Positions 6,542 to 64,000 of a stretch of 64,000 bases of DNA are shown here, piece after piece (positions within the stretch are counted from its first letter, which is position 1; each line of letters starts with the position of its first letter). This DNA comes from Dehalococcoidia bacterium (GTDB taxonomy: Bacteria; Chloroflexota; Dehalococcoidia; Lucifugimonadales; UBA3495): positions 2,000,178 to 2,064,177 of the forward strand of contig OZ244136.1 of the NCBI GenBank assembly GCA_965215975.1. The letters are read 5' to 3'. The notes below the pieces were generated by a model. It was not told the origin of the DNA. It worked only from the letters and a program-made list of their open reading frames with translations, and did no database searches. The position numbers and the translations under genes were made by a program.

Positions 6542-8377
6542 CTAGAAACCGGGCCGAAAAGCCCTGGTTGGGGAGAGGGATTTCGGCAGTAAAGCCGGCT
6601 TGAGCAGAATCACGGTCCACAGTATTCCGAGCCGGACCGCGCCGAAAATGGCCGTAGCATTGGCGACAACACCGTGGGAAACAGCCTGGACATCACTGGG
6701 GACGGCACTGAGGACGACGCGGTGGGCTTCCGCTCCGCCGCCGACACTGTCCGACAGCCCGCTTTTGCCCGCCACCAGGGTCAGGTTGGCCACTGTAGCC
6801 GCCAGGTACAGCTGGAATCGCGTCTTGACCCTGCCGAAATAGCGGGACTGGCGGATGCCCAACTGGACCAGTCGGGCCAACCGGTGTTCCACCGCCACGC
6901 GTCGCGCTCGATATTCGTCGTAGGCGGCGCTCTGCTGCAACGCCCGTGCCTCCTGCAGGAGGCCTTCCTGGGGATGGATCAGCACCCGCCGTCCCTTCCT
7001 GCCCTTGGCTGCGATGCACTGGGACCGCAGTGGACATGTCCGGCATTCGGCCCCGTCGAACTGGAAGGCCTGCCAGCGGTATACCCGCCCCGCGGCATCC
7101 GTCCGCTTTCCCGCTGGCACGATGGTGTGGGTGACCTGTCCCGCCGGACAGGTGCAACTGCCCGCGGCCAGGTCGATGACAAAGTCATCCTTGGGAAAGT
7201 GCTTCCGGTCGGGCCGGCCTGGCACCCGGGCTACCAGCTTGCGGCCCACATCGGCGAAGGTCTGCCTGGTAGCTCCGTCCCCATAGGCGGCGTCGCCCAT
7301 GGCCTCCTGCACCGGTACACCGGTGTTGGCCTCGCTCTGTTCCACCAGTTCCAGCGCCCCCAGGTTGTCCGGAGCGTTGCCGGGCAGTACCGCCACGGCG
7401 GTGATCAGCTGGGAATCGGTATCCACCACAATCGCCGCCTTGTGCCCGTCAAAGCGCCGGCTGCTGCTCTTGTGCCCGTGGCGCATCTCCGGATCATGCA
7501 CCGACATCATCCGGTCCCGGCTCACTCCATCCTTGAGGCTCACGCCGTCATCGCCGTCGCCGTCGCCGCTCTTGCGCTCAATGTCCTGGAGCAGCAACTG
7601 CCCCAGCAGTTCCGCCGCGTCCACAATCCGCTGCCGCTCCTCACCATTCTCGGACAACTCCCCCTGCGCCTGCCGCGACAACTCCAACAGCCGGTCCGCG
7701 TCCGCCACAATCTCGGCCAGCAGGGTCTGCCGCGCCCGTTTGTCGCTCCAGTCGATGGCCGCCTCTCCCTTGATGCTGGAGGCAAGGTACCGCCCGTATC
7801 CCCGGGCCTTGGCCCATTCTTTGACGCTGGACTTCTCCACTGCTGCCAGCGCACGCATTAATTTGACGACCCCGTCCGCCAACAGGTTGCAGGTGTCCTT
7901 CACCGCGCCCCGACCCAGGATGTTGGTCGTGTCCAGCGCCACCTTCATGCTCCGCTTTTTCAGGTAGCCCGACTCCCGGGCCAGCCGCAGGCTGGACTCG
8001 AACACCTCCCGCACTTTGTCGTGCAGGATCAGCTGGGCGCGGAACACCTGCAATGTGCTCTTGGCAAAGGGCCGGTCCTCCACCTCAATCCCCAGGGCCA
8101 CTTTCCACCGGAGGTCAAAGTCAGCCCGGGCCTTGGCCTCGGCGTCGCTCACCTTGTCGTGGGACTGGAGCAGCAGCGCCGTCGCCAGCAGGCTGGGCGG
8201 CACGCTGTCCCGGCCGTTGTCCGGGCAGTAGAACTCGGCGAAATCCGCGTCCCGGAACAACCGGCCCCGCAGCGAGGCCAGCAGACCGTAGAAGGTGTCC
8301 CGCCCCACGTGGTCCAGGTACAACCGGTCCGCTTCCCAGAGACCCCTCTGGTCCGAACGCTCTCCCAGCACTATCAT
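6542..8377 (-). CDS. DDE transposase, IS1182/IS5-like (611 aa)
   Basis: N-terminal transposase domain (FYCPDNGRDSVPPSLL...LRWKVALG). Central DDE region (MSVHDPEMRHGHKS...GDAAYGD), Cys cluster and C-terminal YRARRVAVEHRLARL...YFGRVK. The stop codon TAG lies in the terminal CTAG. Confidence 0.9.
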   Translation of the reverse strand: MIVLGERSDQRGLWEADRLYLDHVGRDTFYGLLASLRGRLFRDADFAEFYCPDNGRDSVPPSLLATALLLQSHDKVSDAEAKARADFDLRWKVALGIEVEDRPFAKSTLQVFRAQLILHDKVREVFESSLRLARESGYLKKRSMKVALDTTNILGRGAVKDTCNLLADGVVKLMRALAAVEKSSVKEWAKARGYGRYLASSIKGEAAIDWSDKRARQTLLAEIVADADRLLELSRQAQGELSENGEERQRIVDAAELLGQLLLQDIERKSGDGDGDDGVSLKDGVSRDRMMSVHDPEMRHGHKSSSRRFDGHKAAIVVDTDSQLITAVAVLPGNAPDNLGALELVEQSEANTGVPVQEAMGDAAYGDGATRQTFADVGRKLVARVPGRPDRKHFPKDDFVIDLAAGSCTCPAGQVTHTIVPAGKRTDAAGRVYRWQAFQFDGAECRTCPLRSQCIAAKGRKGRRVLIHPQEGLLQEARALQQSAAYDEYRARRVAVEHRLARLVQLGIRQSRYFGRVKTRFQLYLAATVANLTLVAGKSGLSDSVGGGAEAHRVVLSAVPSDVQAVSHGVVANATAIFGAVRLGILWTVILLKPALLPKSLSPTRAFRPGF

Positions 8378-19471: not shown

Positions 19472-20692
19472 ATGAACTCCAGGGAATACGACATCGTAAT
19501 CATTGGGGGAGGCATTATCGGCCTTTCCACGGCCATGCAACTAGCCCGCCGGTTTCCCCAGGGCTGCAGCATTGCCGTGCTGGAGAAGGAGAAGGACCTG
19601 GCCACCCACCAGACCGGCCACAACAGCGGCGTAATTCACTCGGGGATCTATTACCGGCCGGGCTCCCAGAAGTCCCAGTTCTGCGTGGGCGGGGCCCAGG
19701 CCCTGATGCGGTTCTGCGACGAGAACGAAATCGAGTACGACCAATGCGGTAAGACCATCGTGGCCACCGAAGAGTCGGAACTGCCCCGGCTGGATAACCT
19801 GTACGAGCGCGGCGTGGCCAACGGGGTGCAGGGGCTGGAAATGATCGGTCCGGAGCGACTGCAGGAAATTGAGCCTCACACCTTCGGACTACAGGCTTTG
19901 TGGTCTCCCACCACCGGAATCATTGACTACGTAAAGGTCAGCGAGGCCTACGCGTCCAGGTTCCAGGACAGCGGCGGCGACATCTACATGGACGCCGCGG
20001 TCAGGTCCATCGGAGGCTCCGCCGGCGCCATGACCATCGACACCTCCCGGGGGTCGGTGCGGGCGGCCCACGTAATCAACTGCGCCGGTCTCTACGCCGA
20101 CCGCATCGCCGAGATGATGGGGGAGCGGACCGGCGTTCGCATCATTCCCTTCCGGGGGGAGTACTATACCCTGAGACCGGAAAGCCAACACCTGGTAAAG
20201 GGCTTGATTTATCCGGTTCCCGACCCCCGGTTCCCCTTCCTCGGCGTCCACTACACCCGCAACATTCACGGCTACGTGGAAGCCGGCCCCAATGCCGTCC
20301 TCGCCTTCGCGCGGGAGGGCTACCGCAAGAGCAATGTGGACCTGGGAGAGTCGGTGGGAACCTTCACTTATCCCGGCTTCTGGAAGATGACCGCCAAACA
20401 CTGGCGCACCGGCGTGTCGGAGATGCACCGTTCCTACAGCAAGAACGTGTTTGTCCACGACCTGCAAAAGCTGATCCCCGAAATCAGGGACGAGGACCTG
20501 GCCCCGGGAGGCTCCGGTGTGCGGGCGCAGGCGGTGGCCACCGACGGGGCTCTGCTGGACGATTTCTCAATACTCCAGGGGCAGCAGGCCATCCACGTGC
20601 TGAACGCGCCGTCCCCCGGGGCCACATCGTCCCTGTCCATCGGCCAGCACATCATGAACCTGGCGGTGGAAAGCTTCGAACTTGAAGGGTAG
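19472..20692 (+). CDS. lhgO: L-2-hydroxyglutarate oxidase/dehydrogenase (FAD-dependent)
   Basis: N-terminal FAD fold DIVIIGGGIIGLSTA. Overall LhgO/YgaF-like sequence (HQTGHNSGVIHSGIYY). Confidence 0.85.
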   Translation: MNSREYDIVIIGGGIIGLSTAMQLARRFPQGCSIAVLEKEKDLATHQTGHNSGVIHSGIYYRPGSQKSQFCVGGAQALMRFCDENEIEYDQCGKTIVATEESELPRLDNLYERGVANGVQGLEMIGPERLQEIEPHTFGLQALWSPTTGIIDYVKVSEAYASRFQDSGGDIYMDAAVRSIGGSAGAMTIDTSRGSVRAAHVINCAGLYADRIAEMMGERTGVRIIPFRGEYYTLRPESQHLVKGLIYPVPDPRFPFLGVHYTRNIHGYVEAGPNAVLAFAREGYRKSNVDLGESVGTFTYPGFWKMTAKHWRTGVSEMHRSYSKNVFVHDLQKLIPEIRDEDLAPGGSGVRAQAVATDGALLDDFSILQGQQAIHVLNAPSPGATSSLSIGQHIMNLAVESFELEG

Positions 20693-20738
20693 GGAAAGCC
20701 TAGATTACCAGCGGATAGTCAATAGACCGGTAACTGCT

Positions 20739-20775
20739 GAACCGGCGGAGTCGCTTAAGATGACTTCGCCGGTTC
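20739..20775 (+). terminator. Hairpin after lhgO
   Basis: GAACCGGCGGAGTC / GACTTCGCCGGTTC 14-bp stem with one mismatch. T-tract is weak. Confidence 0.4.
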
Positions 20776-20969
20776 ATTCCTTGGTTGTCTCGACCAATGC
20801 TGGTCGAAGTCCTGTCATTGGGAGCGAAGCGAAGAATCCCAACCGCACCCTGCAAAGCCTTCAGGGCTCTCAATCCACGTACTTCAGAAACGGCTGGCGT
20901 TCTTGACGCTGCACTCCCGAAGTGCCTGGAGAATATTGGCAACCAGAATAAATTCAGGCACAAAAGGAT

Positions 20970-20992
20970 GGGGCAACCACTAGGGTTGCCCC
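20970..20992 (-). terminator. Terminator of the 21038-23035 gene
   Basis: GGGGCAACC-ACTAG-GGTTGCCCC hairpin, followed on the minus strand by ATCCTTTTGTG. Confidence 0.5.
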
Positions 20993-21037
20993 GACAAGTT
21001 CCAAGGGACTGGCCAGCCTTGAACAGCTGCAGCCCTG

Positions 21038-23035
21038 CTACCGCAGAACGTCGCTGTCTCTGGCCCTGTCAATGTAGCCCTGCACGTCAGCACCGAGCAG
21101 GAACCCGTCCGATTCCAGTTGGCGGGCCACTTTTCCCACCGCGCGGACGTACCCCTCGTGGTCGCCGTAACGTTCCTCAAGGGACAGGCGCGGGTCACCC
21201 GAAGCCTCGCGTTCGGCCTTGGTGGCGGCGAAGGGTATGTGCTGGCCGTCGGACTCGCCTCCGTCGTTTTCGGCAAAGCCCTCGCGTCGCAATGCCCAGC
21301 CGGTGGTGGTGGCTACCGGGGCTTCCACCTCCGGCAGGCGCACGCCCGCCACCTCGTTCCCGTCTTCATCCACTTTCGACACGAATATGGAGTAGGCAGG
21401 ACGGTCAACCACCGACGGCGGACAGTTGGACAAGATTCCCTGGTCGGATTCGGGGCCAAAGTCCAAAACATAGCGGGTGGTTATTACACCGGTATAGGTT
21501 ACCTCCGGGATATCGGGCCAGCCCAGCTCTGCCTGGGGCACACAGCCAACCTCGGATCCGGGACGAGTGACGGCAAAGGCAGCATTTTCGGCGCCCCTGG
21601 GCACCCGGCTGTCCGGCGGAGCGATGCCCTCGCTGACCCACCGGTCCAGGGCGACAAGCAAGGCGCGGTGCGCGGCATAGGGACTGACGCCGTTGGTTAG
21701 CTGCTGGTTCTTGCCTCGCCTGGTAATGTCTCCCACACCATGGGAGAGGCCGGAAATAAGGTAGTAGCGCACGTTCTCCGGGTCGGGCAGGTCGTTCCCC
21801 TCTGTGTCGGTGTGCAGCAGGGAGCAGGCCTTGACCCAGTACTCGTTCGAAGTATTGATCTCAAAACGCTTGGGCAGAGTGGCACTGGCGGCCCCCTGCT
21901 CGCTGCGGCCGGCGGTCTTGCCAGTCAGGTGATCAGTAAGAACCTGGTGAGCAAAGGGGAAGATAGCTTCGGGATAGAGATGGTTCTGGCGGTTGCGCTC
22001 GGTGCGGTCGGTCTGGGCAAACCGGAAGTTAATCTGGTCGCCATTGCCGCCGCCGGTGTGGCTCAAGATCCCGTCCAAAACCCTCTGCCCGTATTCGTCC
22101 TCGTTGAAGCCCAGCTCCTGAAAATCGTTAAGGGTGCGGGAGGGCTGGGATATGGAGTAGCTGTAGGTGTAATCGACCTGGCCCGCCAGCGGGTTGTCCG
22201 CCGACTCCGGGGCGTTGCGCAGGAAGGACATGAAGTCGCGAGTGGCTGCCAGGCCGATGCCCGCCACCAACGGATCTTTCGCAGTGTAAGTAAATTCATA
22301 GATGCGTGACTGCTTGAAGGGAGTCCCCTCGGGCAGCAGGCGAATGGCGGTGCCTTCGTCCGAAGTGTAGTCCCACTCGGCAGGCGGGACTTCTACAGGC
22401 TCGTCGTCCAGATGCTCTCGCACCGTGAGCCTCGCCCCGGACTTGTCCAGGGTGGCGGCGGTGTAGGCCAGGTCGCTGGTCAAAGTGGTCTCGTTGTCAA
22501 AGACGATGTACTCGTAGGACGGGCCGGTGATGGTTTCCCCGTTGTTGGTTGCCACGGGGACGTTAATCGTCATGGAGTTGTGGCCGCTGGCGCTGATGTC
22601 CCATCCGTTGCCTACCACGGCATAGCCCATATTGAACACGAAGCCGGTACCGGCGTCTTTGGCCGATGATGGGTCGTTGTTTGAAGTGGCGCTGTTCAGC
22701 AAGCCCACACGCATTCCACCGCGGTTGTTGAAGTCGAGGATGACCCGCCGGTTGCCGAGGTCGAGGTTAATGGGCTTGAGAACAAAGATGTCCGTCGAAT
22801 ACTCCACCAGACCACGCTCATTTCTGGGAGCCAGTTCTATGTCGGTGATGACGGCATTGCGCGGGTCGGAGGGGTCCAGTTCGCCGTAGGCGGTACCGCG
22901 AAGCTTTTCGTACTGACCAACGCTGCCAAAGGACAGACCCTCGAAAGTGGGAGACTCGGAACGGTTGGGGTCGATAACGATGCGAGTGATACCCGACTTG
23001 GCTGCTATTGCAGCGCCGGGGCGGTTCTGTGTCAT
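21038..23035 (-). CDS. Large conserved hypothetical protein (possibly alpha/beta-hydrolase-like family)
   Basis: 665-aa ORF from the ATG at 23035, preceded by AGGAGA. The upstream extension to 23131 lacks an RBS. The family assignment is from memory only. Confidence 0.55.
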   Translation of the reverse strand: MTQNRPGAAIAAKSGITRIVIDPNRSESPTFEGLSFGSVGQYEKLRGTAYGELDPSDPRNAVITDIELAPRNERGLVEYSTDIFVLKPINLDLGNRRVILDFNNRGGMRVGLLNSATSNNDPSSAKDAGTGFVFNMGYAVVGNGWDISASGHNSMTINVPVATNNGETITGPSYEYIVFDNETTLTSDLAYTAATLDKSGARLTVREHLDDEPVEVPPAEWDYTSDEGTAIRLLPEGTPFKQSRIYEFTYTAKDPLVAGIGLAATRDFMSFLRNAPESADNPLAGQVDYTYSYSISQPSRTLNDFQELGFNEDEYGQRVLDGILSHTGGGNGDQINFRFAQTDRTERNRQNHLYPEAIFPFAHQVLTDHLTGKTAGRSEQGAASATLPKRFEINTSNEYWVKACSLLHTDTEGNDLPDPENVRYYLISGLSHGVGDITRRGKNQQLTNGVSPYAAHRALLVALDRWVSEGIAPPDSRVPRGAENAAFAVTRPGSEVGCVPQAELGWPDIPEVTYTGVITTRYVLDFGPESDQGILSNCPPSVVDRPAYSIFVSKVDEDGNEVAGVRLPEVEAPVATTTGWALRREGFAENDGGESDGQHIPFAATKAEREASGDPRLSLEERYGDHEGYVRAVGKVARQLESDGFLLGADVQGYIDRARDSDVLR

Positions 23036-52359: not shown

Positions 52360-52500
52360 TGGCATTACAACGACGAGTTGAAAGTAGAAGAACAGATTCT
52401 GCCACGCGCTGATTGTGAACGGTTCCCAAGTCAGAATACTCTTCGGCACTCCGACACGAAGCCACAGGCGGCGTTAGTTAAAGCCGACTCTATAATGCTA
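52360..52500. mobile_element. Degenerate copy (C) of the TA-flanked ~150-bp element
   Basis: The left end GCATTACAACGACG shares 12 consecutive nt with copies A and B. The right end CGACTCTATAATGC-TA-G is a weaker match. It abuts the stop codon of the next gene. Confidence 0.4.
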
Positions 52501-53433
52501 GGCCAGCGTCAGGGTAGAGGCGGGAAATAACTCTTCAGGATCGACCTTTTCAGGGATTACCCCTTGTTCGACATTGAATCGAACGAAGGTTTCCAGCGTC
52601 TTGCGGGAACTTTCGAACCCATAAGGGATCGGATCATCCCCCACTACCTCAGCCATTTTCAGCAGGGCCCGGTCCGCCTGGCTCGGATGGTCACCGGAGT
52701 GCAGGCCCTCGATGTAGTGGCTCTTGGCCGTCTTGAACACCTCGAACAACTCTTGCTCAAGGCCGGGATTTGCCTCCAGCCGCGCGTTCTTGACCACCAC
52801 CATATGGCTTATAGGATAAATTCCAGTCTTTTGGTGCCAGGCGTCGTCGGCCGCGTCCGGCTCCGAGAACAGGGGTTGGACATCGGGCGAGTCGACCGGT
52901 CCCGCACCAATTGCGGCGTCTATCTCTCCGGAGAGCAGCATTTCCCCCAGGTCCCCATTGGGGGACGACACCACATTCGGTGGCGCGACGAATTCGGCGA
53001 CGTGTTCATCGCCGGACAAAACCCAGGTTACGGCTTCCAGGTCCACACCGTACTCGGTTTGCAGGATGCCCCGTGTCCAAACCCCGGGAGTAAGCGTGTA
53101 GCTGCGCAGTCCTACCTTCCGCCCTTCCAGGTCTTTGGGTGACGTAATTCCACTGCGCGTATTGTGTACCAGCCCTCCGTGGTAGAAGGCCCGAGTCAAA
53201 AAGACGGGTATTCCAGTAAAAGGCTTCCCGTGGGCGCGGGCGCACATGTACGTCGAAAGGGCCATCTCCGCAACGTCGAACTCCAGACCGCGCACCATGC
53301 GCCGGAAAATGCTGACCACGGGGGACACTTCGATATGTTCCATGCTAAACATCGCCGAGGCGATGGTTCCGTCCTTCAACGGTGTCGTGTGACCGTAGCT
53401 ACCCACGGCTGTCCGCAATACCAAGTCTGTCAT
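52498..53433 (-). CDS. 4,5-dihydroxyphthalate decarboxylase-like / periplasmic-binding-fold protein
   Basis: The pattern ...FDVAEMALSTYMCARAHGKPFTGIPVFLTRAFYHGGL...DLEGRKVGLRSYTLTPGVWTRGIL... resembles the PhtD-like family, from memory. Confidence 0.6.
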   Translation of the reverse strand: MTDLVLRTAVGSYGHTTPLKDGTIASAMFSMEHIEVSPVVSIFRRMVRGLEFDVAEMALSTYMCARAHGKPFTGIPVFLTRAFYHGGLVHNTRSGITSPKDLEGRKVGLRSYTLTPGVWTRGILQTEYGVDLEAVTWVLSGDEHVAEFVAPPNVVSSPNGDLGEMLLSGEIDAAIGAGPVDSPDVQPLFSEPDAADDAWHQKTGIYPISHMVVVKNARLEANPGLEQELFEVFKTAKSHYIEGLHSGDHPSQADRALLKMAEVVGDDPIPYGFESSRKTLETFVRFNVEQGVIPEKVDPEELFPASTLTLA

Positions 53434-53608
53434 TATCTCAATCTCCTGGTCACTGACTCCTGCTGGTCATAGCCCAACAACAAGCTACTCTTGTTTCCGT
53501 CGGTTGGCAACACTCGCCGTGGGGCCGGAGTTCCTTTTAATGAACGCTATCCATCATCCCTGTTTCATTTTGTTGGCCGGTTATGGGCTGGCCCATCCTA
53601 AACCAAAG

Positions 53609-53755: not shown

Positions 53756-54904
53756 CCAAAGCCAAGGTGGGATGTGCATTTGCCGGGTGATGGGGATCGG
53801 GTCGGGGGTCTTGCAGGAGTGCTTCGGCCGTTGACTGCAGTACCGTCCGGCAGCGGCGCCTAACCTCGTCTCTCCGGCTGGCCAGACCGGCCAGGAAGTT
53901 GCCGACCCTCTCCTGCACCGCAGCCCTGCTCCCCAGGCAGAGATTGCCGGTGGCCTCCTCTCTGGTCCAGCCCCAGATGGCCTCATCGGCGTTGAAGTCC
54001 GGGCTGTACCCCGGCAGGTTCACCAACCGCAAGCCCAGCCCAGGCGTCCTGAGGTACTCCCGCATCGCCTCGCCACGATGGGCCGGCGCGTTGTCCCAGA
54101 TGACCCGCATCGGCCCCGGATGCCTTTCTCTCAGTTGTTCCAGGAAGGCAACCGAGGTCCCACTGTTGCTGTTGCCCTCCAGTTCCATCCATTCCACCTC
54201 GCCCGTCTCCAGGCACACCGCCGAATAGTAGCTGGCCTTCTCCCCATACCGCGGGCTGGTCGAGTCCACCAAAGCAGGTTTGCCCTTCAGCACCCACTTG
54301 CCCCGCAGTTCCGCATCGGCCCGGAAGTGGGCCTCATCAGCAAAGAATATTCTGGCTTCCTTCCGACCAGCCTACTCCCTCAGAGCGGCGTACTCCGCCA
54401 CGAAAGCCTCCCGCTTCGCCTCGTCCGCCTTGAGCAGGCGTTTCTTGGGACGCTTGAAGGCAAACCCCAGCCGGTGCAGCCAGTTCACACAACTGCTGCG
54501 GCTCAACCCAATGCCGAACCGCTCCCCGGCAAACCGCCGCACCACCTTCCAATACCAGTTGGCCAGATCGATGCCCGAGGCGCCGGGCGGTTCCTGTACC
54601 GCTGCCTTCAACTCCTCCTGCTGCGCTTGATCAAGGGCGGGGGGGAACCACCGGCCTGCTCGAATATCAAGGCTGCAGGTCCTCCCTCTCCGAAGGCCGA
54701 CGCCCATCGTCCTATGGTATGGGGGTCCCTTCCCAGAGTCTGCGCCGTGGCCGCTGCGGTCCAGCCCTGCGCCAGCAGCAGCAAGGCGTACCACCGCTCC
54801 CGCTCCCTGGGTGTGGGCGCCAAAATCATTCGCCGACGCAAGTCCTTGATTTCCATCTGCCACTGTTCCAGACACCGGTCTATCTCCCTCACGCCCATCA
54901 CCAA
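53706..54904 (-). pseudogene. IS630-family DDE transposase, disrupted
   Basis: The HTH part (54608-54904) is in a different frame from the middle part, with the shift at the G7 run 54639-54645. An in-frame TAG at 54372-54374 precedes the DDE_3 part (…VIWDNAPAHRG…NLPGYSPDFNADE…). Confidence 0.8.
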
Positions 54905-54988
54905 CCCCTCCCAACTCCCGACACCAGCTAACCGGGTTCCTTCACAAATTTACCCCTTCCCACTGCGCGCTTCACCTTGGCTTTGGTT

Positions 54989-55138
54989 TAGTATTACAAC
55001 GACGGATCGCAAGAAAGGGATCTTGAGTACCCTTCATAGCAACCTGCCCGCGCGCTCGATAGCTTTGTGGCCTTGCCTTCCGCGAAGCGATATCCAGTCT
55101 AAAACTCACCAAATTGAGGTAGCGTCGTTGTAATACTA
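54989..55138. mobile_element. TA-flanked ~150-bp inverted-repeat element, copy A
   Basis: Termini GTATTACAACGACG / CGTCGTTGTAATAC (14/14) bounded by TA. It lies inside the 3' end of the cache-domain gene. Confidence 0.65.
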
Positions 55139-55951: not shown

Positions 55952-57995
55952 CTACAGACCGCCAGGAGCATTTACCAGGTGGCTTAGATCATCAGCCACT
56001 CCGTCGTGGGTTAGGACCGCATCGTGGACGGAGCCGGCAACGATGGCACCGCCGTTCAGGGTCAGTTGGTTGGCATTGATTGCGATGCCGTCCGCATCGT
56101 TGTCACCCGCCTGGACGGTGTAACCGAACATTACCGCAGCGCCGCTGGTGCTGCGGTACTCCGCGGTCCGGGCGGTGCCGCCGATGTCCAGTTCCAGTTG
56201 CGGGGCGCCGGTGACGCTCACGTCCTCGCTGAAGGTGACGGTCGCCTGGACGGTATCCCCTGCAACGTAGGTGTCATCGTCTCCGGGATTGGAGGTGAGG
56301 GCGACGTCGGAGATGGTCGGCGCGGTCACGTCGGGCGGTGCCAGTTGACCGTTCACCTTGTGGTCGGGGTCCTCCCCCATGGTGACGGCTCCATAGTAGG
56401 GGTCGGGAACGTAGCTGATGTCGGTCCCGGCGGCCTTGATGTCCTGGGTGTAGGACATCAAGGCGTCTATGCCGTTTTCGTCCAGGTCATCCTCCACCAC
56501 CGTGTACTCGAATACCAGGGTGTCGGTGCCGTTGCCCGAGACGAAGGGGATATGTCGCTGGTCGATGGTGGACCCTATGCGGAGGGTCAGGAAAGTGACT
56601 GGGCCCGCGGTGACGTCCTGGCCGAAGTTCACGCTGGGCCGGATGACCTCGCCCCGTCCGTAGGTATCCTCCGCCGCCACCGGGGTGGAGAGGATGCGGA
56701 TTTCCTTCGGGTAGGGCCGTCCGTCCAGCTTGTGGCCCGACTGGTTGAACAGCCCGGTGAACTTTGCCGGTACCAAGATGTCGGTGCCCTTGACCTTGAT
56801 GGTGCCAGGGCCGCCCCAGCCCTTCCGGACGTCGTCCTCGACGTAGCTTCTCTGGATGGTGATGCCGTCCTGGTCCAGGTCCCTGGACTGGACGGTATAT
56901 CCGAACATCAGGGTGGTTGGTGCCGGTGCCGGATTGGTACCAGACGCCGCGCCACCAGTCGTCGTCTCCGTCGCCGACCCGTGCGTTCAGGTGCTTGAGG
57001 CCGTTAACTTTGACTTCGGCGCTTAGGGTGAGGGCGACCAGAATGGTCTCGCCGTAGCGGTATTTGACGCCGTCCTCTGGCTCGGAGATGATCTCCATGC
57101 CGGTGCCGATGGGGGTCAGGCTGCCGTTAACCTTGTGGTCGGGCTGATTGTCGATGCCGTCATAGGCCTGGTAGGCAATGATCGGGGTTCCCGCAGCCGT
57201 GACGGCGTCATGGTTCAGGAAGTTGAACCAGTTACTTAATATGCCCTTGTCGACGCCGGGTATTTTGATGCCGTTCCAGTCTCTTTCCCCGGACTGGACG
57301 GTGTAGCCGAATACAAGGGTGTCGGAGCCGGAGCCCCGCAGGTAGTAGGCGATCCACCAGTTGCTGCCGATCTGGATTCCCAGGCCGGGGTTGTCTTCCA
57401 CTTCCACGCTGGTGTTGACGTCCACGCTGGTGCTGAAGGTGGCTTCAATCTCAATGGTTTCCCCAACGCCGTAGGTGTTGTTGTCGCGGGCCGGTTCGGA
57501 GATTATCTCGAGGCCGGTGATGTTGGGGTCGTTGTCGAGGATGGTGATCTCGCACCTGTTGTCCCGGGCTGGGTCGTCTTGGTCCACCACGTTGTCGGTG
57601 GGGGTGAAGCGGACCGTGAAGGTCTCGTTGCCCTCCAGGAGAGCATCATCCAGGGTGCTGAAGGTGCGCTTGGCCCGGTTGGCCTCGCTCTCGGAGTCGT
57701 TGGCCACGATTTGGCCAGAATCCTGGGCGACGTAGTCGTCGGCGCCGGCGGTGCCGGCGTCGGTGTGCCAGTTGGCGGAGAAGGTGTTGTCGTGCTGGTG
57801 GTCGCTGACCCGGACCAGGTAGACGTCAAAGTCCTCGCCCTCACGGACCTCAGTGGTCGGGCATTCCAGGTAGAACTCGGCGGTGTCGGCGCTGGCCGGG
57901 GCCGGTTGCAGCAGGGCAGTCAGGCCGATTAGCCCCATCAGTCCAGCCAGGGTGGCCAGAGCAAGTATTCCAGGTGCTCGGGTTCGTTTTTTCAT
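55952..57995 (-). pseudogene. Secreted Calx-beta / repeat-domain surface protein, frameshifted
   Basis: Signal peptide MKKRTRAPGILALATLAGLMGL..., a Calx-beta-like domain, then four repeats ending ...TLVFGYTVQ... The reading frame switches at 56909-56918 (C-run). Removing one C restores GTGTNHLMFGYTVQ. Confidence 0.7.
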
Positions 57996-58089: not shown

Positions 58090-58520
58090 CCTTTTCTTTG
58101 CTCTGATTCCTCTAATTTCTCCGGGCGGTTGCTTTGCACTGCTTTCGCTGTAGATATAAAAAGACCATTCTCTTGATGGTAATGGCCCTGCAGTGGCCCT
58201 GTTAGGGCCGTTTGTACAGACATTTGTGGGGGCAATCTGTTGCTCGAATGGTTGGCAAAGTGGTTGCCATCGAGCCTGTACGTTTTGGCAACTGTCTATT
58301 GAGAATGGTTGTCCTCGGACGTGGTGCGACGGCACAGTTCTCATGGGTCTGGTTGGCGCAGCTGGCGACGGGGGTTGACCGGACAGGAAGCGCTTTGCTA
58401 GGTGAGTTACCCTGCCTGGCGGGGCCCGGGTGGTGGCTGGCAAAGCAAAACGCCCCGCGCCGAAACGGCGTGGGGCGTCCACGACATACTGCCGGAAGCA
58501 GGACCTTGCCGGTCCCGGAG
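58090..58520. repeat. Conserved ~0.4-kb noncoding element, copy 1 (upstream of the 57995 surface-protein gene)
   Basis: Aligns with 62890-63265. Shared hairpins GGCCCT-GTT-AGGGCC (58195-58209), CCCCGCGCCG-AAA-CGGCGTGGGG (58453-58475) and GGACC-N5-GGTCC (58501-58515). Confidence 0.6.
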
Positions 58521-58653: not shown

Positions 58654-58902
58654 GTGGTAACGCTGTGCAAAGGTGGTCCCAACATATACCCGACCTGGCT
58701 ACCCAAGCTGATAGCCGGCCTCGACCAATGCGAGTGGAAGATGTGGTTCCAGGTACACCACGACGGCAGGACCCTGGGAAGCGACTTCAACCTGATCCGC
58801 TACAGCATCGAGCATACCGAGCTGGTGCGCTTCAGCACCGACGAGAACGAGCAGCCCGGCTTCACAGTAACGGTGAAGGCCCAGAACCAGTTCAAGTTGT
58901 AG
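58654..58902 (+). CDS. Small hypothetical protein
   Basis: 82-aa ORF with GC3-rich codon usage (…FNLIRYSIEHTELVRFSTDENEQPGFTVTVKAQNQFKL) followed by a GGGAC…GTCCC hairpin. No motif recognised. Confidence 0.35.
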   Translation: MVTLCKGGPNIYPTWLPKLIAGLDQCEWKMWFQVHHDGRTLGSDFNLIRYSIEHTELVRFSTDENEQPGFTVTVKAQNQFKL

Positions 58903-59000
58903 GTGGCGAAAGGGACCTCTCCGGAAGTCCCGACATCGTCACCTGGCGGGACGAGGAGGCCATGATCGTGGCCGCCAAGGCGGCCAAATGTTCCTGCAAG

Positions 59001-62000
59001 TCAGTCGTCCAGTTCACTCAAAGACACCTTGTAGGTCCCTATAGTCGTGAAACGCCTGTAAGTACGTTCAAGGTTGGAGTGATAGTTGTCGTAATCCTCC
59101 TGGTTGCTCCCCAGTATGTAGATATCATCCCCCCAGATCGACACGAAGTGCTTCCCGCTGGCGTCGGGCCGGGAATCCCAGCTCATCTCACTCCCGTCTG
59201 CAACGTGGCCCTCCGCAGGACTTCCGTCCGCGCCATAGATGCCGTGGATCTTGCCGTAGCCCATGGTGAACTCGCTTGATGCCTGGAACGCTCCGGTGAT
59301 GGCGATGCGGTAGTCGTGACCGGCGGTCAGTTCCAGAGCGAACCAGTCCTGGTCACCCACCGTTTCTATTTCTGCCTGGATGGATGCACCCACCTGCACC
59401 TGCCCGGTAGTGTTGGTGAAGTTGGCAAAGTCGTCGTCTTCACCGGAACTGTACTCGGTGAGAAACAGGGAATACGTGCCCTGGGCGCCGCGTCCGACGG
59501 AAGTACCGTCCCAGTCGATCCGCTTGTAGGCGCTGGCCTCGATGTAGTGGCGCCCGGTGCTCGTGGGAGTGAATACCACCCTGGCATTGCCTCCCACGCC
59601 CGAGTCGTCATCCCTGGTCCAGCGGACCGACGAGCCGGCGGCATCGAATATCCCGGTGATGGCGGTGTTGGTCAGCGTGCCGTGTTCGGTAGGCCGGCCC
59701 TTGTGCTCGATCCAGTAGGTTTGCCCTGAGGTAAGTTGGGTGGCGAACCAGTCGCGGTCGCCGGTGAACTCAATTTCCCCGGTCCTGGAACCGTTGACCG
59801 TGATGGTTCCGGTGGTATTGGTACTGCGGGCGTAGTCGTCTCTTTGATAGCGGGTCTGATACCTGAGGTTGTATGAGTTGCTGCCATTGCCCACGGCCTG
59901 GACCCGTATATAGTACGTTCCGCGCTCCACGGAGATTTCGAACCACCTGTCCGTGGCCCAACTGGAATCACGGATCTTCAGCCTCCTGCCCTTCGTGTCC
60001 TCCAGGTACAGGCCGGCATCCACGTCCAGGTCCTCGAGCCACACCGTCACCTTCTTGGCCCTGCTGACCGTGAATTTGTAATAGTCAACCGTGTCTTCCC
60101 CCCGGTTAACGGTGTCTTGTCTTGTCCGACCCGAACCTTGGTTGGTGATGTCGCCCAGGTTGTTGGCGGTGTCGCGAGTTGAGTCCGGGTCCGGGGTAGG
60201 GTCGTTGTCGTGGATGGAGATGGTGGTTTGGGCGTTAGTTTCTGCGCTTACGCGGTCCGGGAGGGTGCCAAAGCTGAGGGCAACGCTCTCCCCGTCGTCG
60301 TCATCGGCGTCGTCCGTCGCGGTTACGGTGAAGGTGGCCTCGGTGCCCCCCGAGACGATTGAAACGCTGTCAGGCATGCCGGTGAGGTCCTCGTCGGTGG
60401 CGCCGTCCTGGTTGGCACGGGTGATCGGGATGGTGAGCTCGCGCTCAGGGTCGGCGCTGAGGTTCACGGTGACGGTGGCGGAGCCGCCCTCGCTGAGGCC
60501 GTAAGTGGACGTCTCGAAGCTGACGGTCACTGCAGGTGGCGCCGCCGGGACCGTGACGTTCACCTGGTTGCTCTGGAGACTGAGGCCGTCCTGGTTTCGG
60601 GCCCTGATGCGGTAGATGTACCTGCCCTCAGGCTCCACGCTATCGTCAAAGTAGCGGGTGTCCGCACTCCCAGTATCGTCCACGAGGACTGAGAGCGTCG
60701 GTTCGTCGGCTTGATTGCGTCTGAGTATCTGGTAGCTGGTGATGGTGTCGTCGTCAGGCTGGTCCCAGGACAGGGTGACCGAGGTGGGCGCAGCCGTAGC
60801 GGACAGGCCCGACGGAGCATCAGGGGGATCGGCAAGAGGCTCGGGCGGTTCTTCCGCCTCCCGTAACTCCGCCACCTTGTCGGCGGCGGGTTCGGCCACG
60901 CCGTAGCGCAGCACATACACGTTCTCGCCGGCCTCCTGCGCTTCCACCCGGATGAAGTAGCCGCCTTCCAGTATCGTACGGGTGATGGCCTCGTTGGCCG
61001 TGCCGCTCTTGCGAGACCGCGTTATGGTCTCGCCCTCACTGTCCTCTAATGACAGGTCCGCGTTGAAGTCCAGCTGCTTGACGCCGATAGTGACCCGGTT
61101 GGGTTCGGCCAGCGTGAACCGGAAGTAGTCGATGCTGTCGTCACCGCCGTCGATAGTGTACTTCGGGAACTGGACCTCGCTCAGGCCGGTGATGTAGCCC
61201 AGGTCGTTGGCTCCCTCCCTGGTGGCATCTTCGTCCGTGGCCTGCGGCGTTGCCTGGGGCTCCGGCTCGTCGTTGTCGGTGATGGATACCGTGGCCTGGT
61301 TCGTGGCGCCGGCGTTACCCGCCCGGACAGATTGCCCAGGGCCAGCACCAGACTTTCGCCGTCATCGTCCTCACCGTCGTCGGTGGCCGTTATGGTGATC
61401 GTAAGGCGGGTGTCTCCGCTGTTGAAGGTGACCTCCGACGGGACGGCGGAATAGTCGGAGTACGACGCGCCGTCCTGGTTGGACACGGTCAGCGGTATCG
61501 TCACGGAGCGTTCCGGGTCTACGTCTAGCAGGATGGCGACGGATACGTTCTGGCCCTCGCCGACTGTGTAGGTCGCCTGCTCGAAGGACACGGTGACCGC
61601 TGGCGGCTGGGGCGTCTCCACCTCGAAGTGGTTGCTCTGTCCGCTCAGGCCGGCTTCGTTTCGGGCCCTGACTGCGTAGACATAGGTGGTTCCAGGTTCC
61701 ACGTAGTCGTCGGTGTAGGAGAGGCTGGCGCTGCCGGTGTCGGGTACCAGGGTCTCAAAGTCTGACCCTTCCTGCCGCAGGACCTGGTAGCCGGTGATGG
61801 TCTCATCGTTGGGATCGTCCCAGGTCAGGGACACTGCCTTGTGGGTCGCGGCGCCGCTCAGGCCGGTGGGGCTGGCCGGTAGCTCTGGCTCCGGAGATTC
61901 CGGCAGGTTGGCGTCGAAGAAGTTGCTCATGGAGCTGAGTCCGGCCTCGTTCCTGGCCTTCACTCGGTAGGTGTCCCGGCCCTCGGCCTGGACGTCGGTG

Positions 62001-62495
62001 TCGGTGGCGGTGTAGGCGGTGGCGGTGGAGTCGGTGTCGTCCACCAGGACGGAGAAGTCTCCCGCATCCTGGGTCTGGCGATCCCGCCTCAGCACCTGGT
62101 AGCCGGTGGGGTCGGCTCCTCCTTTGGGGGCGTCCCAGCTGAGTTGTACTTGGTCGTGGCTGACGGTACCGGTCAGGTTCCTTGGCTTGTTCGGTGGCTC
62201 CGCCTCTTCCGTTTCCTCTGCTGCTGCCATCACGGTGACGGTGACGACGTTGCTTCACGGGCCATTGCTGCCGCTGTACCGGGCCCTCACCCTGGCCTTA
62301 ATCGTTGAGGGCGGGGGTTGGGCACGTCCCACTGCAAGGACATGGCGCCTGGCGTCGTGCTGCTGGCGCTCAGGCCGGAGATGGCCCCTTCCTCCTGCTG
62401 GGCGACGGCGGTACCGCTGACGGTAAGTGCCAGAAGGATTGTCAGGACTGCCCCCAGGGCTATCGCCAGGCAGATGCCGGCGGCCTGCGATTTTG
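59001..62495 (-). pseudogene. Giant secreted FN3 / Calx-beta / PPC-domain surface protein, multiply disrupted
   Basis: Signal-like AAGICLAIALGAVLTILLALTVSGTAVAQQ near 62400-62495. Frameshift at the C/G5 run 62313-62317, in-frame TGA at 62255-62257 (expected GPWS), and frameshift at 61316-61325 (G-run). Otherwise it is a continuous series of FN3, Calx-beta and pre-peptidase C-terminal-like domains down to 59001. Confidence 0.7.
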
Positions 62496-62889
62496 TCCCT
62501 GACGCAGTGGTTAGCTTCTGTATTGCTGGTCTTCCCCGTTTTGATGTGGATGGCTTGAAGGGGCCCGGTTTTTCGGGCCGGGGGTGGTCCGCTTTCTGGC
62601 CCCATGGATTTGTGTGGGTTGGCTGCCTGGCACAAGCTGGCGCCGGTCAGGTCCGGCGCCAACTGTTTCCATGAAGAGTGTCATGGATGTTACGGCCCTG
62701 CTGGCCGTCTCGGGTTTGGCTATCCTGGCGAGTGAAGGCTGGATTGCCTTCTTTGTTTCACGTGGTGGATACGCTGTTAGCGCTGGTGGTTTTGTCGCTA
62801 TTCGAGGCAAGCCGTCTCTGATGGCTGGGGGACTCTGCTGGCCTGGTCCCTTCGTAAGCTGCTCCAGAAGGGCCTGTGGCCTGGGCTTC

Positions 62890-63265
62890 TGTTTCCTTTG
62901 CTGCCCTTGGTCTCTCTGGGACGATCTGAAATGCTTTCGCGGTAGCTATAAGCCTATTGCAGTGATGATAATGGCCTAGCAGTGGCCCTGTTAGGGCCGT
63001 TTGTACAAACGTTTGGGTGGTATTCTGTTGCTTGAACGGTTGACAAAACGCTTGCCATTTGGCCTGTACGTTTTGGCAATTCTCTTCTGAACTGGCGCAA
63101 CGGCGCAGTTGGCGACGGGGGTTGAGTGGACCGGAAGCTCTTTGCCAGGGGAGTTCCCCTGCCTGGCGTGGCCAGGCTGGTGGCGGGCAGAGCAAAACGC
63201 CCCGCGCCGAAACGGCGTGGGGAGTCCACGACATACTGCCGGAAGCAGGACCTCGAAGGTCCCTA
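62890..63265. repeat. Conserved ~0.4-kb noncoding element, copy 2 (upstream of the giant surface-protein gene)
   Basis: The same three hairpins at 62984-62998, 63200-63222 and 63248-63262. It is about 41 nt shorter than copy 1 in the middle. Confidence 0.6.
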
Positions 63266-63589
63266 CGACCTTGACTTTGAGGGCGCGTCCCCGGGGGAAC
63301 GCAATGGTATAGCTAGACTCATGGCCAATGGTGCACTAATCACCATTGGCGCCTACGACTGGTGTAGCCTCCAACTATTTCAGCCGGGCAGTCCGTAGAT
63401 TTACTCTGCGGGCTGTTTACGTTGCCCGCGTCTTTGATTGAGGCCGGGATATACCTCGCATGTCAGTAATGGTCTGACACCCAAGCTGCGTTACCCGCGA
63501 TCAGGGCATGCTGGTTGCCCCGTTTTCAGGCTTTGACTGCCTTATTTTGTCCGGCGTTTTGGTTGTAAAGAGAGGGCGGTATCAGGTCC

Positions 63590-63740: not shown

Positions 63741-64000
63741 GAAATCTGGCCGGAAAGTGGCGGTGGCCGGGCGGGCGGCTATACTTGGAGTCAACAAGAG
63801 TAGCGAGGGCGGAGAATGCTGGGAGAGCGATCGGACCAGAGGGGCCTCTGGGAAGCGGACCGGTTGTATCTGGACCACGTGGGGCGGGACACCTTCTACG
63901 GTCTGCTGGCATCACTGCGGGGCCGGCTGTTCCGGGACGCGGATTTCGCCGAGTTCTACTGCCCGGACAACGGCCGGGACAGCGTGCCGCCCAGCCTGCT
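63738..64000 (+). mobile_element. IS1182/IS5-superfamily insertion sequence, copy 2 (left part; continues beyond window)
   Basis: Starts CTAGAAATCTGGCCGGAAAGTGGCGG..., the reverse complement of the copy-1 right end. Roughly 95% identical to copy 1 over the visible 263 bp, by eye. Confidence 0.9.
63816..64000 (+). CDS. Transposase of IS copy 2, N-terminal fragment
   Basis: MLGERSDQRGLWEADRLYLDHVGRDTFYGLLASLRGRLFRDADFAEFYCPDNGRDSVPPSL matches the copy-1 transposase N-terminus (which starts MIVLGERS). Confidence 0.85.
   Translation, partial: MLGERSDQRGLWEADRLYLDHVGRDTFYGLLASLRGRLFRDADFAEFYCPDNGRDSVPPSL

Follow-up and report, generated by a model that had tools for sequence, protein, structure and literature searches.

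A two-copy noncoding repeat before two unrelated surface-protein genes of a sponge-symbiont Chloroflexota, a possible terminator-plus-promoter cassette

The locus and its neighbourhood

The DNA analysed here, referred to throughout as the window, is a stretch of 64,000 nt from a member of the Chloroflexota that lives in symbiosis with the sponge Geodia barretti. Two minus-strand genes for surface proteins lie towards its right-hand end, each with a copy of the same repeat on its upstream side, together with the remains of a plus-strand nuclease gene:

56487-57995, minus strand (ATG at 57995): gene A, signal peptide and Calx-beta-like surface protein
58140-58516, minus strand (that of its downstream gene), 377 nt: copy A of the repeat, from alignment
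58654-59102, plus strand: PDDEXK_1/Cas4-like nuclease gene fragment, an 82-aa ORF with an out-of-frame continuation
59001-62520, minus strand: gene B, fn3/Calx-beta/PPC surface protein
62932-63263, minus strand (that of its downstream gene), 332 nt: copy B of the repeat, from alignment

Genes A and B have no meaningful similarity to each other, and their 5′ ends are non-homologous, in agreement with the original prediction that the genes downstream of the two copies have unrelated N-termini. Gene A is represented by a 502-aa ORF with a frameshift near 56900, and coding continues in the ORF at 55952-56908; the frameshift is real, because the same 502-aa ORF is found in independent HiFi and Illumina assemblies. 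A 56-nt segment occurs four times in gene A (56083-57321), about 390 nt apart, and marks a repeated domain of ∼130 aa. In gene B, the signal-peptide coding region begins near 62493 in a frame that has no ATG, GTG or TTG, there are at least three frameshifts, and the gene is likely a pseudogene. The defects in both genes are not sequencing errors, since they are the same in independent HiFi and Illumina assemblies. The nuclease fragment is found 138 nt beyond the right edge of copy A, and its 82-aa ORF is an N-terminal fragment with 42% identity to a locus of a related genome (L004, 19792-20448). Intact nuclease paralogues are arranged in tandem at that locus (19792-21240), beside a Calx-beta gene and a BrnA antitoxin gene. 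Strain-level SNPs are concentrated in two places, the nuclease fragment and the 3′ half of gene B, which together account for most of them.

We compared the window with two related Chloroflexota genomes (91% and 85% nucleotide identity), using a LysR gene as the anchor. Both are colinear with the window only to ∼51955, just after a HhH-GPD glycosylase gene; thus, the whole remainder of 12+ kb, with both copies of the repeat, is a lineage-specific island. The island consists of IS elements, pseudogenes and surface-protein genes, with an IS630-like element at 53900-55000 and an IS1182/IS5-like element from ∼63734 to the window end (64000). In every other strain contig fetched that extends to this point, similarity to the window is lost exactly at 63741, and two of the strain contigs (L001 and L023) have a DDE_5 transposase further on, rather than the IS1182/IS5-like element of the window. 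One of these two (L023, a 655-kb contig that is otherwise 99.95% identical) has within 7133-7665 a 72-nt tandem duplication of window positions 63284-63355; the duplicated stretch is 20 nt past the right edge of copy B and has a palindrome, GCCAATGGTG...CACCATTGGC. Elsewhere in the island, a 1.24-kb unit (52364-53601) with a 311-aa ORF (52498-53433, minus strand) is found again in related contigs, sharply bounded and ∼95% identical, in no fewer than eight unrelated settings, mostly flanked by IS elements, and behaves like a mobile or repeatedly captured module. The 311-aa ORF belongs to a cluster of 47 members, has one source name of ‘4,5-dihydroxyphthalate decarboxylase’ and gives a faint NMT1 match; as part of a multi-copy unit in unrelated contexts, this gene was unsuitable as a synteny anchor.

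A direct repeat with two sharp edges

Alignment and a repeat search find the direct repeat twice in the 64-kb window, with no third copy. The copies are 85% identical over 332 ungapped columns, and copy A is longer than copy B by ∼45 nt. Most of this difference is a hairpin-shaped insertion that is present in copy A only:

58300-58343, unstranded: insertion TGAGAA...TTCTCA

The original prediction had placed the repeat at 58090-58520 and 62890-63265. The two copies do align, but the leftmost 50 nt (58090-58139) are outside the significant similarity: this flank and its counterpart at copy B, both of which are CT-rich, are no more alike than shuffled sequences (p = 0.16). We therefore start the repeat at TGCTTTCGC (58140 in A and 62932 in B), and the conserved part ends 144 nt before the gene A ATG at 57995, a correction of the ∼95 nt given at first. 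On the right side, the flanks of A and B are likewise unrelated (p = 0.86 versus shuffles). Because the flanks are unrelated on both sides, both edges are sharp; the edge sequences (left, then right) are TTGCAC and GGAGAG for copy A, and CTGAAA and TACGAC for copy B, with the repeat between them. Each copy has the same orientation relative to its own downstream gene, and the distance from the end of copy B to the signal-peptide coding region of gene B exceeds 430 nt. With unrelated flanks on both sides and non-homologous downstream genes, the copies are not the edges of a larger duplication that includes coding sequence, an explanation that had been raised along with the original prediction.

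The similarity is noncoding and patchy

The repeat is noncoding. Mismatches between the copies are distributed by codon position as 6/7/4, 5/4/7 and 5/4/2 in three ungapped blocks, with no 3-nt periodicity, and the similar translations change frame across the indel. ORFs that overlap the repeat have no Pfam match, and the overlapping ORFs of 186 and 158 aa match only themselves in collections of 5.8 and 1.8 billion proteins, besides one spurious tandem-repeat protein. A protein-coding remnant was rejected, since the substitutions have no codon phase and there is no similarity to known proteins, and conserved small ORFs were dropped because none is common to A and B. The earlier description of the similarity as not protein-like is thus borne out by the mismatch pattern, by the frame switch at the indel and by the Pfam search.

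Conservation within the repeat is patchy. There are three perfect runs between A and B, of 29, 30 and 32 nt, and the probability of a third run of at least 29 nt is 0.001. The 29-nt run coincides with a short hairpin (hairpin 1, the GGCCCT palindrome) plus TGTACA, the 32-nt run with a large hairpin including its T-tract, and the 30-nt run with a spacer that leads into a terminal hairpin; indeed, the hairpin-bearing blocks are better conserved than the remainder of the repeat. The highest conservation is seen over 77 nt at 58440-58516, with five mismatches, three of which are in a loop. This best-conserved end is the one farthest from the genes, not the promoter-proximal one. The patchiness of the runs argues for constraint, or for patchy gene conversion, that would have acted on those parts alone. 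Both copies are unchanged in ∼12 strain-level contigs (99.7-99.95% identical), with zero SNPs in either copy, a number that is not significant relative to the overall SNP density.

Conserved hairpins and inverted repeats

The original prediction named three hairpins, and all three are found in A and B as described. These hairpins and the other conserved elements of the repeat are as follows:

58195-58209 (A) and 62984-62998 (B), unstranded: hairpin 1, perfect palindrome GGCCCT-GTT-AGGGCC, in the 29-nt perfect run
58210-58218 (A) and 62999-63007 (B), unstranded: GTTTGTACA, directly after hairpin 1, from the aligned copies
58252-58269 (A) and 63040-63057 (B), unstranded: operator-like inverted repeat, TTGGCAA-N5-TTGCCA in A and TTGACAA-N5-TTGCCA in B, from a sequence match
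58363-58378 (A) and 63110-63125 (B), unstranded: invariant block TGGCGACGGGGGTTGA, complementary to one arm of the large hairpin
58453-58475 (A) and 63200-63222 (B), minus strand: large GC-rich hairpin CCCCGCGCCG-AAA-CGGCGTGGGG, in both copies
58476-58500 (A) and 63223-63247 (B), unstranded: invariant 25-nt spacer between the two right-hand hairpins, in the 30-nt perfect run
58501-58516, minus strand: terminal hairpin GGGACC-GGCAA-GGTCC, marking the sharp right-hand end of copy A
63248-63263, minus strand: terminal hairpin GGGACC-TTCGA-GGTCC, marking the sharp right-hand end of copy B

On the minus strand of copy A, the large hairpin has a 10-bp stem with one A.C mismatch and can be extended to 58450-58478; on the plus strand, it has 13 pairs including one G.U, with a CGAAAC/GAAA loop. 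Its fold energy is −28.1 kcal/mol on the plus strand and −25.9 kcal/mol on the minus strand. The spacer sequence after 58476 is GTCCACGACATACTGCCGGAAGCA, and in the terminal hairpin that follows, the stem is identical in A and B while the loop differs at three of its five positions. Through its complementarity with one arm of the large hairpin, TGGCGACGGGGGTTGA could serve as an alternative pairing partner for that arm. The pattern TTGRCAA-N5-TTGCCA has four matches versus 0.12 expected, three of them within the repeat, and a third TTGGCAA is found inside a conserved block, CCTGTACGTTTTGGCAA (58275-58291 in A and 63063-63079 in B).

We compared the folding of the repeat with that of shuffled controls. 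The consensus fold is more stable than those of column-shuffled alignments on both strands (z = −4.1 on the plus strand and −4.8 on the minus strand), the structure conservation index gives p = 0.04 and p < 0.005, respectively, and the folds of single copies have z of about −2.7 to −2.9. The structural excess on both strands comes mostly from strand-symmetric palindromes. An end-to-end helix is supported on the plus strand (p = 0.006 and 0.016) and is not significant on the minus strand; however, the right end finds better pairing partners in internal windows than in the left end. A 47-nt plus-strand hairpin has a few pair-compatible substitutions, including one change from A-U to G-C, in a comparison of two sequences only, and several predicted helices differ between A and B. 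The strand signals conflict, because the terminal hairpin folds better on the minus strand and the large hairpin folds better on the plus strand.

Terminator and promoter candidates

On the minus strand, the large hairpin is followed in both copies by the tail TTTTGCTTTG (in context, CGTTTTGCTTTG at 58452-58441 in copy A and CGTTTTGCTCTG at 63199-63188 in copy B). A GC-rich hairpin followed by a T-rich tail on the minus strand reads as an intrinsic terminator and, in both copies, the GC-rich stem-loop is directly before the T-rich tract on the transcribed strand, as the definition of such a terminator specifies. The hairpin with its TTTTGCTTTG tail is the strongest terminator-like site on the minus strand of the 64-kb window (−26 kcal/mol). 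The earlier proposal of a terminator-like hairpin on the gene strand is thus credible, given a GC-rich stem and TTTTGCTTTG in both copies and a fold energy of −25.9 kcal/mol. Comparable sites with a hairpin plus a T-run are found at ORF ends elsewhere in the window (480/505, 18684 and 47635). Copy A is 525 nt downstream of the gene B stop (59001), with an opposite-strand pseudogene between them, and upstream of copy B there are only noncoding DNA and an IS element. The terminator-like hairpin is separated from the coding start by ∼455 nt in copy A and by more than 690 nt in copy B.

Each copy also has a candidate promoter of the sigma-70 type:

58205-58200 and 58181-58176, minus strand: candidate of copy A, CTAACA, 18 nt, TACCAT, aligned with that of copy B
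62994-62989 and 62970-62965, minus strand: candidate of copy B, CTAACA, 18 nt, TATCAT, 9/12 match

The candidates are at the same aligned position in A and B and match the consensus weakly (8-9/12), and the number of promoter-like sites in the region is not above that in shuffles. Hairpin 1 overlaps the −35-like CTAACA of the minus strand, and three TTGSCAA half-sites are upstream of the promoter-like site. A sigma-54 promoter was rejected: TGGCA-N6-TTGC is found on both strands in copy A, but copy B has one defective half per strand.

The repeat is confined to one bacterial population in our searches

Membership of an Rfam 15 family is defined by a covariance-model score at or above the gathering threshold of that family. 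At this threshold, the whole window yields zero matches and, at E ≤ 10, the two copies yield only chance-level scores of 12-16 bits, versus thresholds of 34-102. The original prediction could not place the repeat in a familiar RNA family, and the covariance-model check, in which none reaches its threshold, agrees. A scan for tRNA and tmRNA found none. We also considered three known kinds of structured element, none of which fits: for an integron attC core, GTTAGGG does not conform to GTTRRRY; for a group II intron domain V, there is no bulge, no AGC triad and no Rfam match; and for an IS605 omega-RNA or an IS110 bridge RNA, there is no TnpB, IscB or recombinase ORF and no Rfam match.

Sequence searches gave similar results. 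Exact scans found no match for a 23-mer of the invariant spacer in GTDB species genomes, one chance match (in Paraprevotella) for a 20-mer of hairpin 1 in GTDB genomes, six matches for a 20-mer of the spacer in JGI metagenomes, all by chance and inside unrelated coding sequence, and no match for two repeat blocks in IMG/VR. No match was obtained by blastn against plasmids and phages. A profile of the two copies, run with nhmmer, and a covariance model built on the right-hand 91 nt each recovered nothing but the known copies from ∼300 kb of related Chloroflexota loci. Thus, the known copies are the two paralogues plus near-identical strain copies, all from one bacterial population.

If the repeat were an old part of the control of gene A, homologues of gene A would be expected to have it. 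The repeat is absent from the upstream regions of all four gene A homologues examined (55-61% amino-acid identity). These upstream regions are quite different, and three of the homologues are beside a divergent HisKA_3/GerE two-component system:

L004, 8342-10000: gene A homologue locus with divergent HisKA_3 kinase/GerE response regulator
L005, 7290-10000: gene A homologue locus with divergent HisKA_3 kinase/GerE response regulator
L006, 6199-10000: gene A homologue locus with divergent HisKA_3 kinase/GerE response regulator

Since the homologues have other upstream regions, the repeat is not ancestral to the control of gene A. The last two of these loci share a conserved upstream stretch of ∼450 nt, which is unrelated to the repeat.

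Discussion

The reading that we favour, although tentatively, is that the repeat is a copied intergenic terminator-plus-promoter/operator cassette before two unrelated surface-protein genes. Read in the direction of the gene (minus) strand, the cassette would open with the short hairpin at the sharp edge, followed by the 25-nt invariant stretch and then by a strong Rho-independent terminator that would stop read-through from upstream. Beyond the terminator there would be an upstream regulatory stretch of ∼270 nt, in which TTGRCAA-N5-TTGCCA, TGTACA and GGCCCT-N3-AGGGCC are palindromes that resemble operators, and then a weak sigma-70-like promoter, CTAACA-18-TAYCAT, with its −35 within the GGCCCT palindrome. 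A transcript from this candidate promoter would have an untranslated leader of ∼170 nt in copy A and of more than 450 nt in copy B. To judge from the sequence, the terminator and the promoter may be in use and the palindromes may be bound by a regulator; copying presumably occurred by recombination rather than by transposition. In favour of this reading, the repeat is noncoding, with sharp edges and with unrelated flanks and downstream genes, its conservation is centred on hairpins, its anatomy is terminator-like, both copies are oriented alike relative to their genes, a promoter-like site is at the aligned position in each, the operator-like motif is in excess, and homologous upstream regions before non-homologous genes have a precedent (PMC3488235). 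Against it, the promoter match is weak and promoter-like sites are no more frequent in the region than in shuffles, the best-conserved end is the one distant from the genes, gene A homologues have other upstream regions, some helices (the large hairpin with its G.U, and the end-to-end helix) pair better on the plus strand, and the lack of SNPs is not significant. In addition, genes A and B are both frameshifted and gene B has no start codon, and the cassette may be driving nothing at present.

The original prediction offered three options: a riboswitch- or attenuator-type leader, an independent small RNA or a regulatory landing region. The last of these would fit best and a small RNA is possible, but a leader is disfavoured. 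Like a riboswitch or attenuator, the repeat has a terminator hairpin upstream of a gene, and one arm of this hairpin could pair with TGGCGACGGGGGTTGA. However, the terminator is at the far upstream end, remote from the coding start (∼455 nt in copy A, more than 690 nt in copy B), and is preceded by just ∼45 conserved nt, with no conserved sensor domain, promoter or upstream anti-terminator partner, and Rfam gives no match. Furthermore, TGGCGACGGGGGTTGA is downstream of the terminator on the gene strand and thus cannot act as an anti-terminator.

In another reading, which we consider somewhat unlikely, an old duplication or gene-conversion event within a decaying region left the repeat behind as a neutral remnant, with no present function and with hairpins that were simply inherited from the original sequence. 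Such a leftover would agree with the pseudogene-like state of both downstream genes and the fragmentary nuclease gene, with the restriction of the repeat to one population, and with a lack of SNPs that is not significant; moreover, two-member families are the commonest outcome of random duplication of promoter regions (PMC3488235). It accounts less well for the significant clustering of conserved positions around the hairpins and the T-tract of the terminator (P = 0.001), or for a duplicated piece that has no coding sequence and yet precedes, identically oriented, two genes of one functional class. That orientation, in which both copies face the downstream gene in the same way, also speaks against a non-autonomous mobile element or an orphaned end (MITE-like, an IS200/IS605-type end or another IS terminus) that landed twice, with hairpins recognized by a transposase or recombinase, an origin that we regard as improbable. 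Although the repeat is sharply bounded and ends in a hairpin on one side, and although the island is rich in IS elements (IS630-like and IS1182-like, with DDE_5 in other strains), has resolvase genes in related loci and is absent from related genomes, A and B have no terminal inverted repeats in common, the only pairing partner of the left end is a sub-terminal segment, and no target-site duplication or common flanking target motif is seen at the edges. There are two copies in the window and none in the fetched IS copies, in viral, plasmid and phage collections or in GTDB. In addition, the divergence between A and B is 15%, versus ∼0.3% between strains, which argues that there has been no recent mobile-element activity.

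Unlikely, too, in our estimate, is that the repeat encodes its own RNA in two paralogues, either a minus-strand sRNA of ∼80 nt, with a 5′ hairpin of variable loop, a 25-nt invariant single-stranded ‘seed’ and an intrinsic terminator, or a plus-strand structured RNA of ∼330-380 nt, with its two ends paired and with the GAAA-loop hairpin inside. The 77 nt of highest conservation (58440-58516) have the classic anatomy of an sRNA, and an RNA product is consistent with a consensus fold that beats column-shuffled alignments on both strands and with the z values of the single-copy folds. The plus-strand form in particular would explain a large hairpin that is perfect apart from one G.U and has a GAAA loop, ends that pair on this strand and not on the other, and the pair-compatible substitutions of the 47-nt hairpin. 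If either form were transcribed from within the repeat, a shared promoter would be expected; however, no conserved promoter precedes either, as similarity stops at the terminal hairpin and at TGCTTTCGC. For the sRNA, the upstream flanks are unrelated with no shared −10/−35, and for the structured RNA there is no terminator. Other observations also weigh against an RNA product: no Rfam family matches, no homologue is found in related genomes, several predicted helices differ between the copies, internal windows compete successfully for the right end, the terminal and large hairpins favour opposite strands, and pair-compatible changes drawn from two sequences only are not a test. The more specific proposal that this is a new lineage-restricted RNA (the ∼80-nt sRNA or the ∼330-380-nt plus-strand RNA) that controls the expression of eukaryote-like fn3/Calx-beta surface proteins is less likely still.

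The favoured cassette is best grouped with duplicated intergenic regulatory repeats of kinds already described and is not demonstrably a new class. Its closest counterparts are the putative mobile promoters (PMPs) of Matus-Garcia et al. (2012), homologous upstream regions before non-homologous genes, whose families are mostly two-member and private to one species (PMC3488235). The definition of PMPs requires an identity of ≥80% over a minimum of 50 nt, before CDSs that are non-homologous and whose upstream neighbours are non-homologous as well (PMC3488235). The repeat has 85% identity over 332 nt with unrelated genes and flanks and, like PMPs, is a two-member family in one species with no IS or riboswitch match. 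It differs from PMPs in its length (330-380 nt versus a typical 50-100), in its position, which is −145 to −521 in A and farther in B and thus outside the −50 to −150 before the translation start that is specified for PMPs, and in having a terminator at the distal end while its promoter is a candidate only.

Similar comparisons can be made with other repeats and RNAs. The pneumococcal BOX and RUP elements are intergenic repeats that carry promoter or terminator signals. Correia elements (CREE, in Neisseria) and ERIC are also named intergenic repeats (PMC3488235). The repeat resembles all four in being a discrete noncoding unit with stable hairpins, located between genes and able to affect transcription of a neighbour, but those elements have terminal inverted repeats, are often flanked by target duplications and number in the tens to hundreds, whereas the repeat has neither a terminal inverted repeat nor a target-site duplication and is known in two copies. 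The large hairpin resembles Rho-independent terminators in its GC-rich stem of 10-13 bp, its 3-nt loop and its TTTTGCTTTG tail on the minus strand; it differs in that no intact gene ends just upstream, in being embedded in a repeated unit, and in its stem, which has an A.C mismatch when read as the terminator and a G.U on the opposite strand. With multi-copy sRNAs that end in a terminator, the repeat shares a 5′ hairpin, an invariant single-stranded stretch, an intrinsic terminator and the presence of two paralogues, but it has no conserved promoter or homologues, and a further 290 nt are conserved downstream of the terminator.

Sponge symbionts have many eukaryote-like surface proteins, which are thought to mediate contact with the host. 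To our knowledge, almost nothing is known of how the genes for these proteins are controlled. The present case is a weak one, from a single population and a decaying, IS-rich island in which both downstream genes are apparently broken. If the repeat is indeed a terminator-plus-promoter cassette that can be reused, or else a small RNA private to this population, it would provide a first handle on the control of surface-protein genes in these symbionts.
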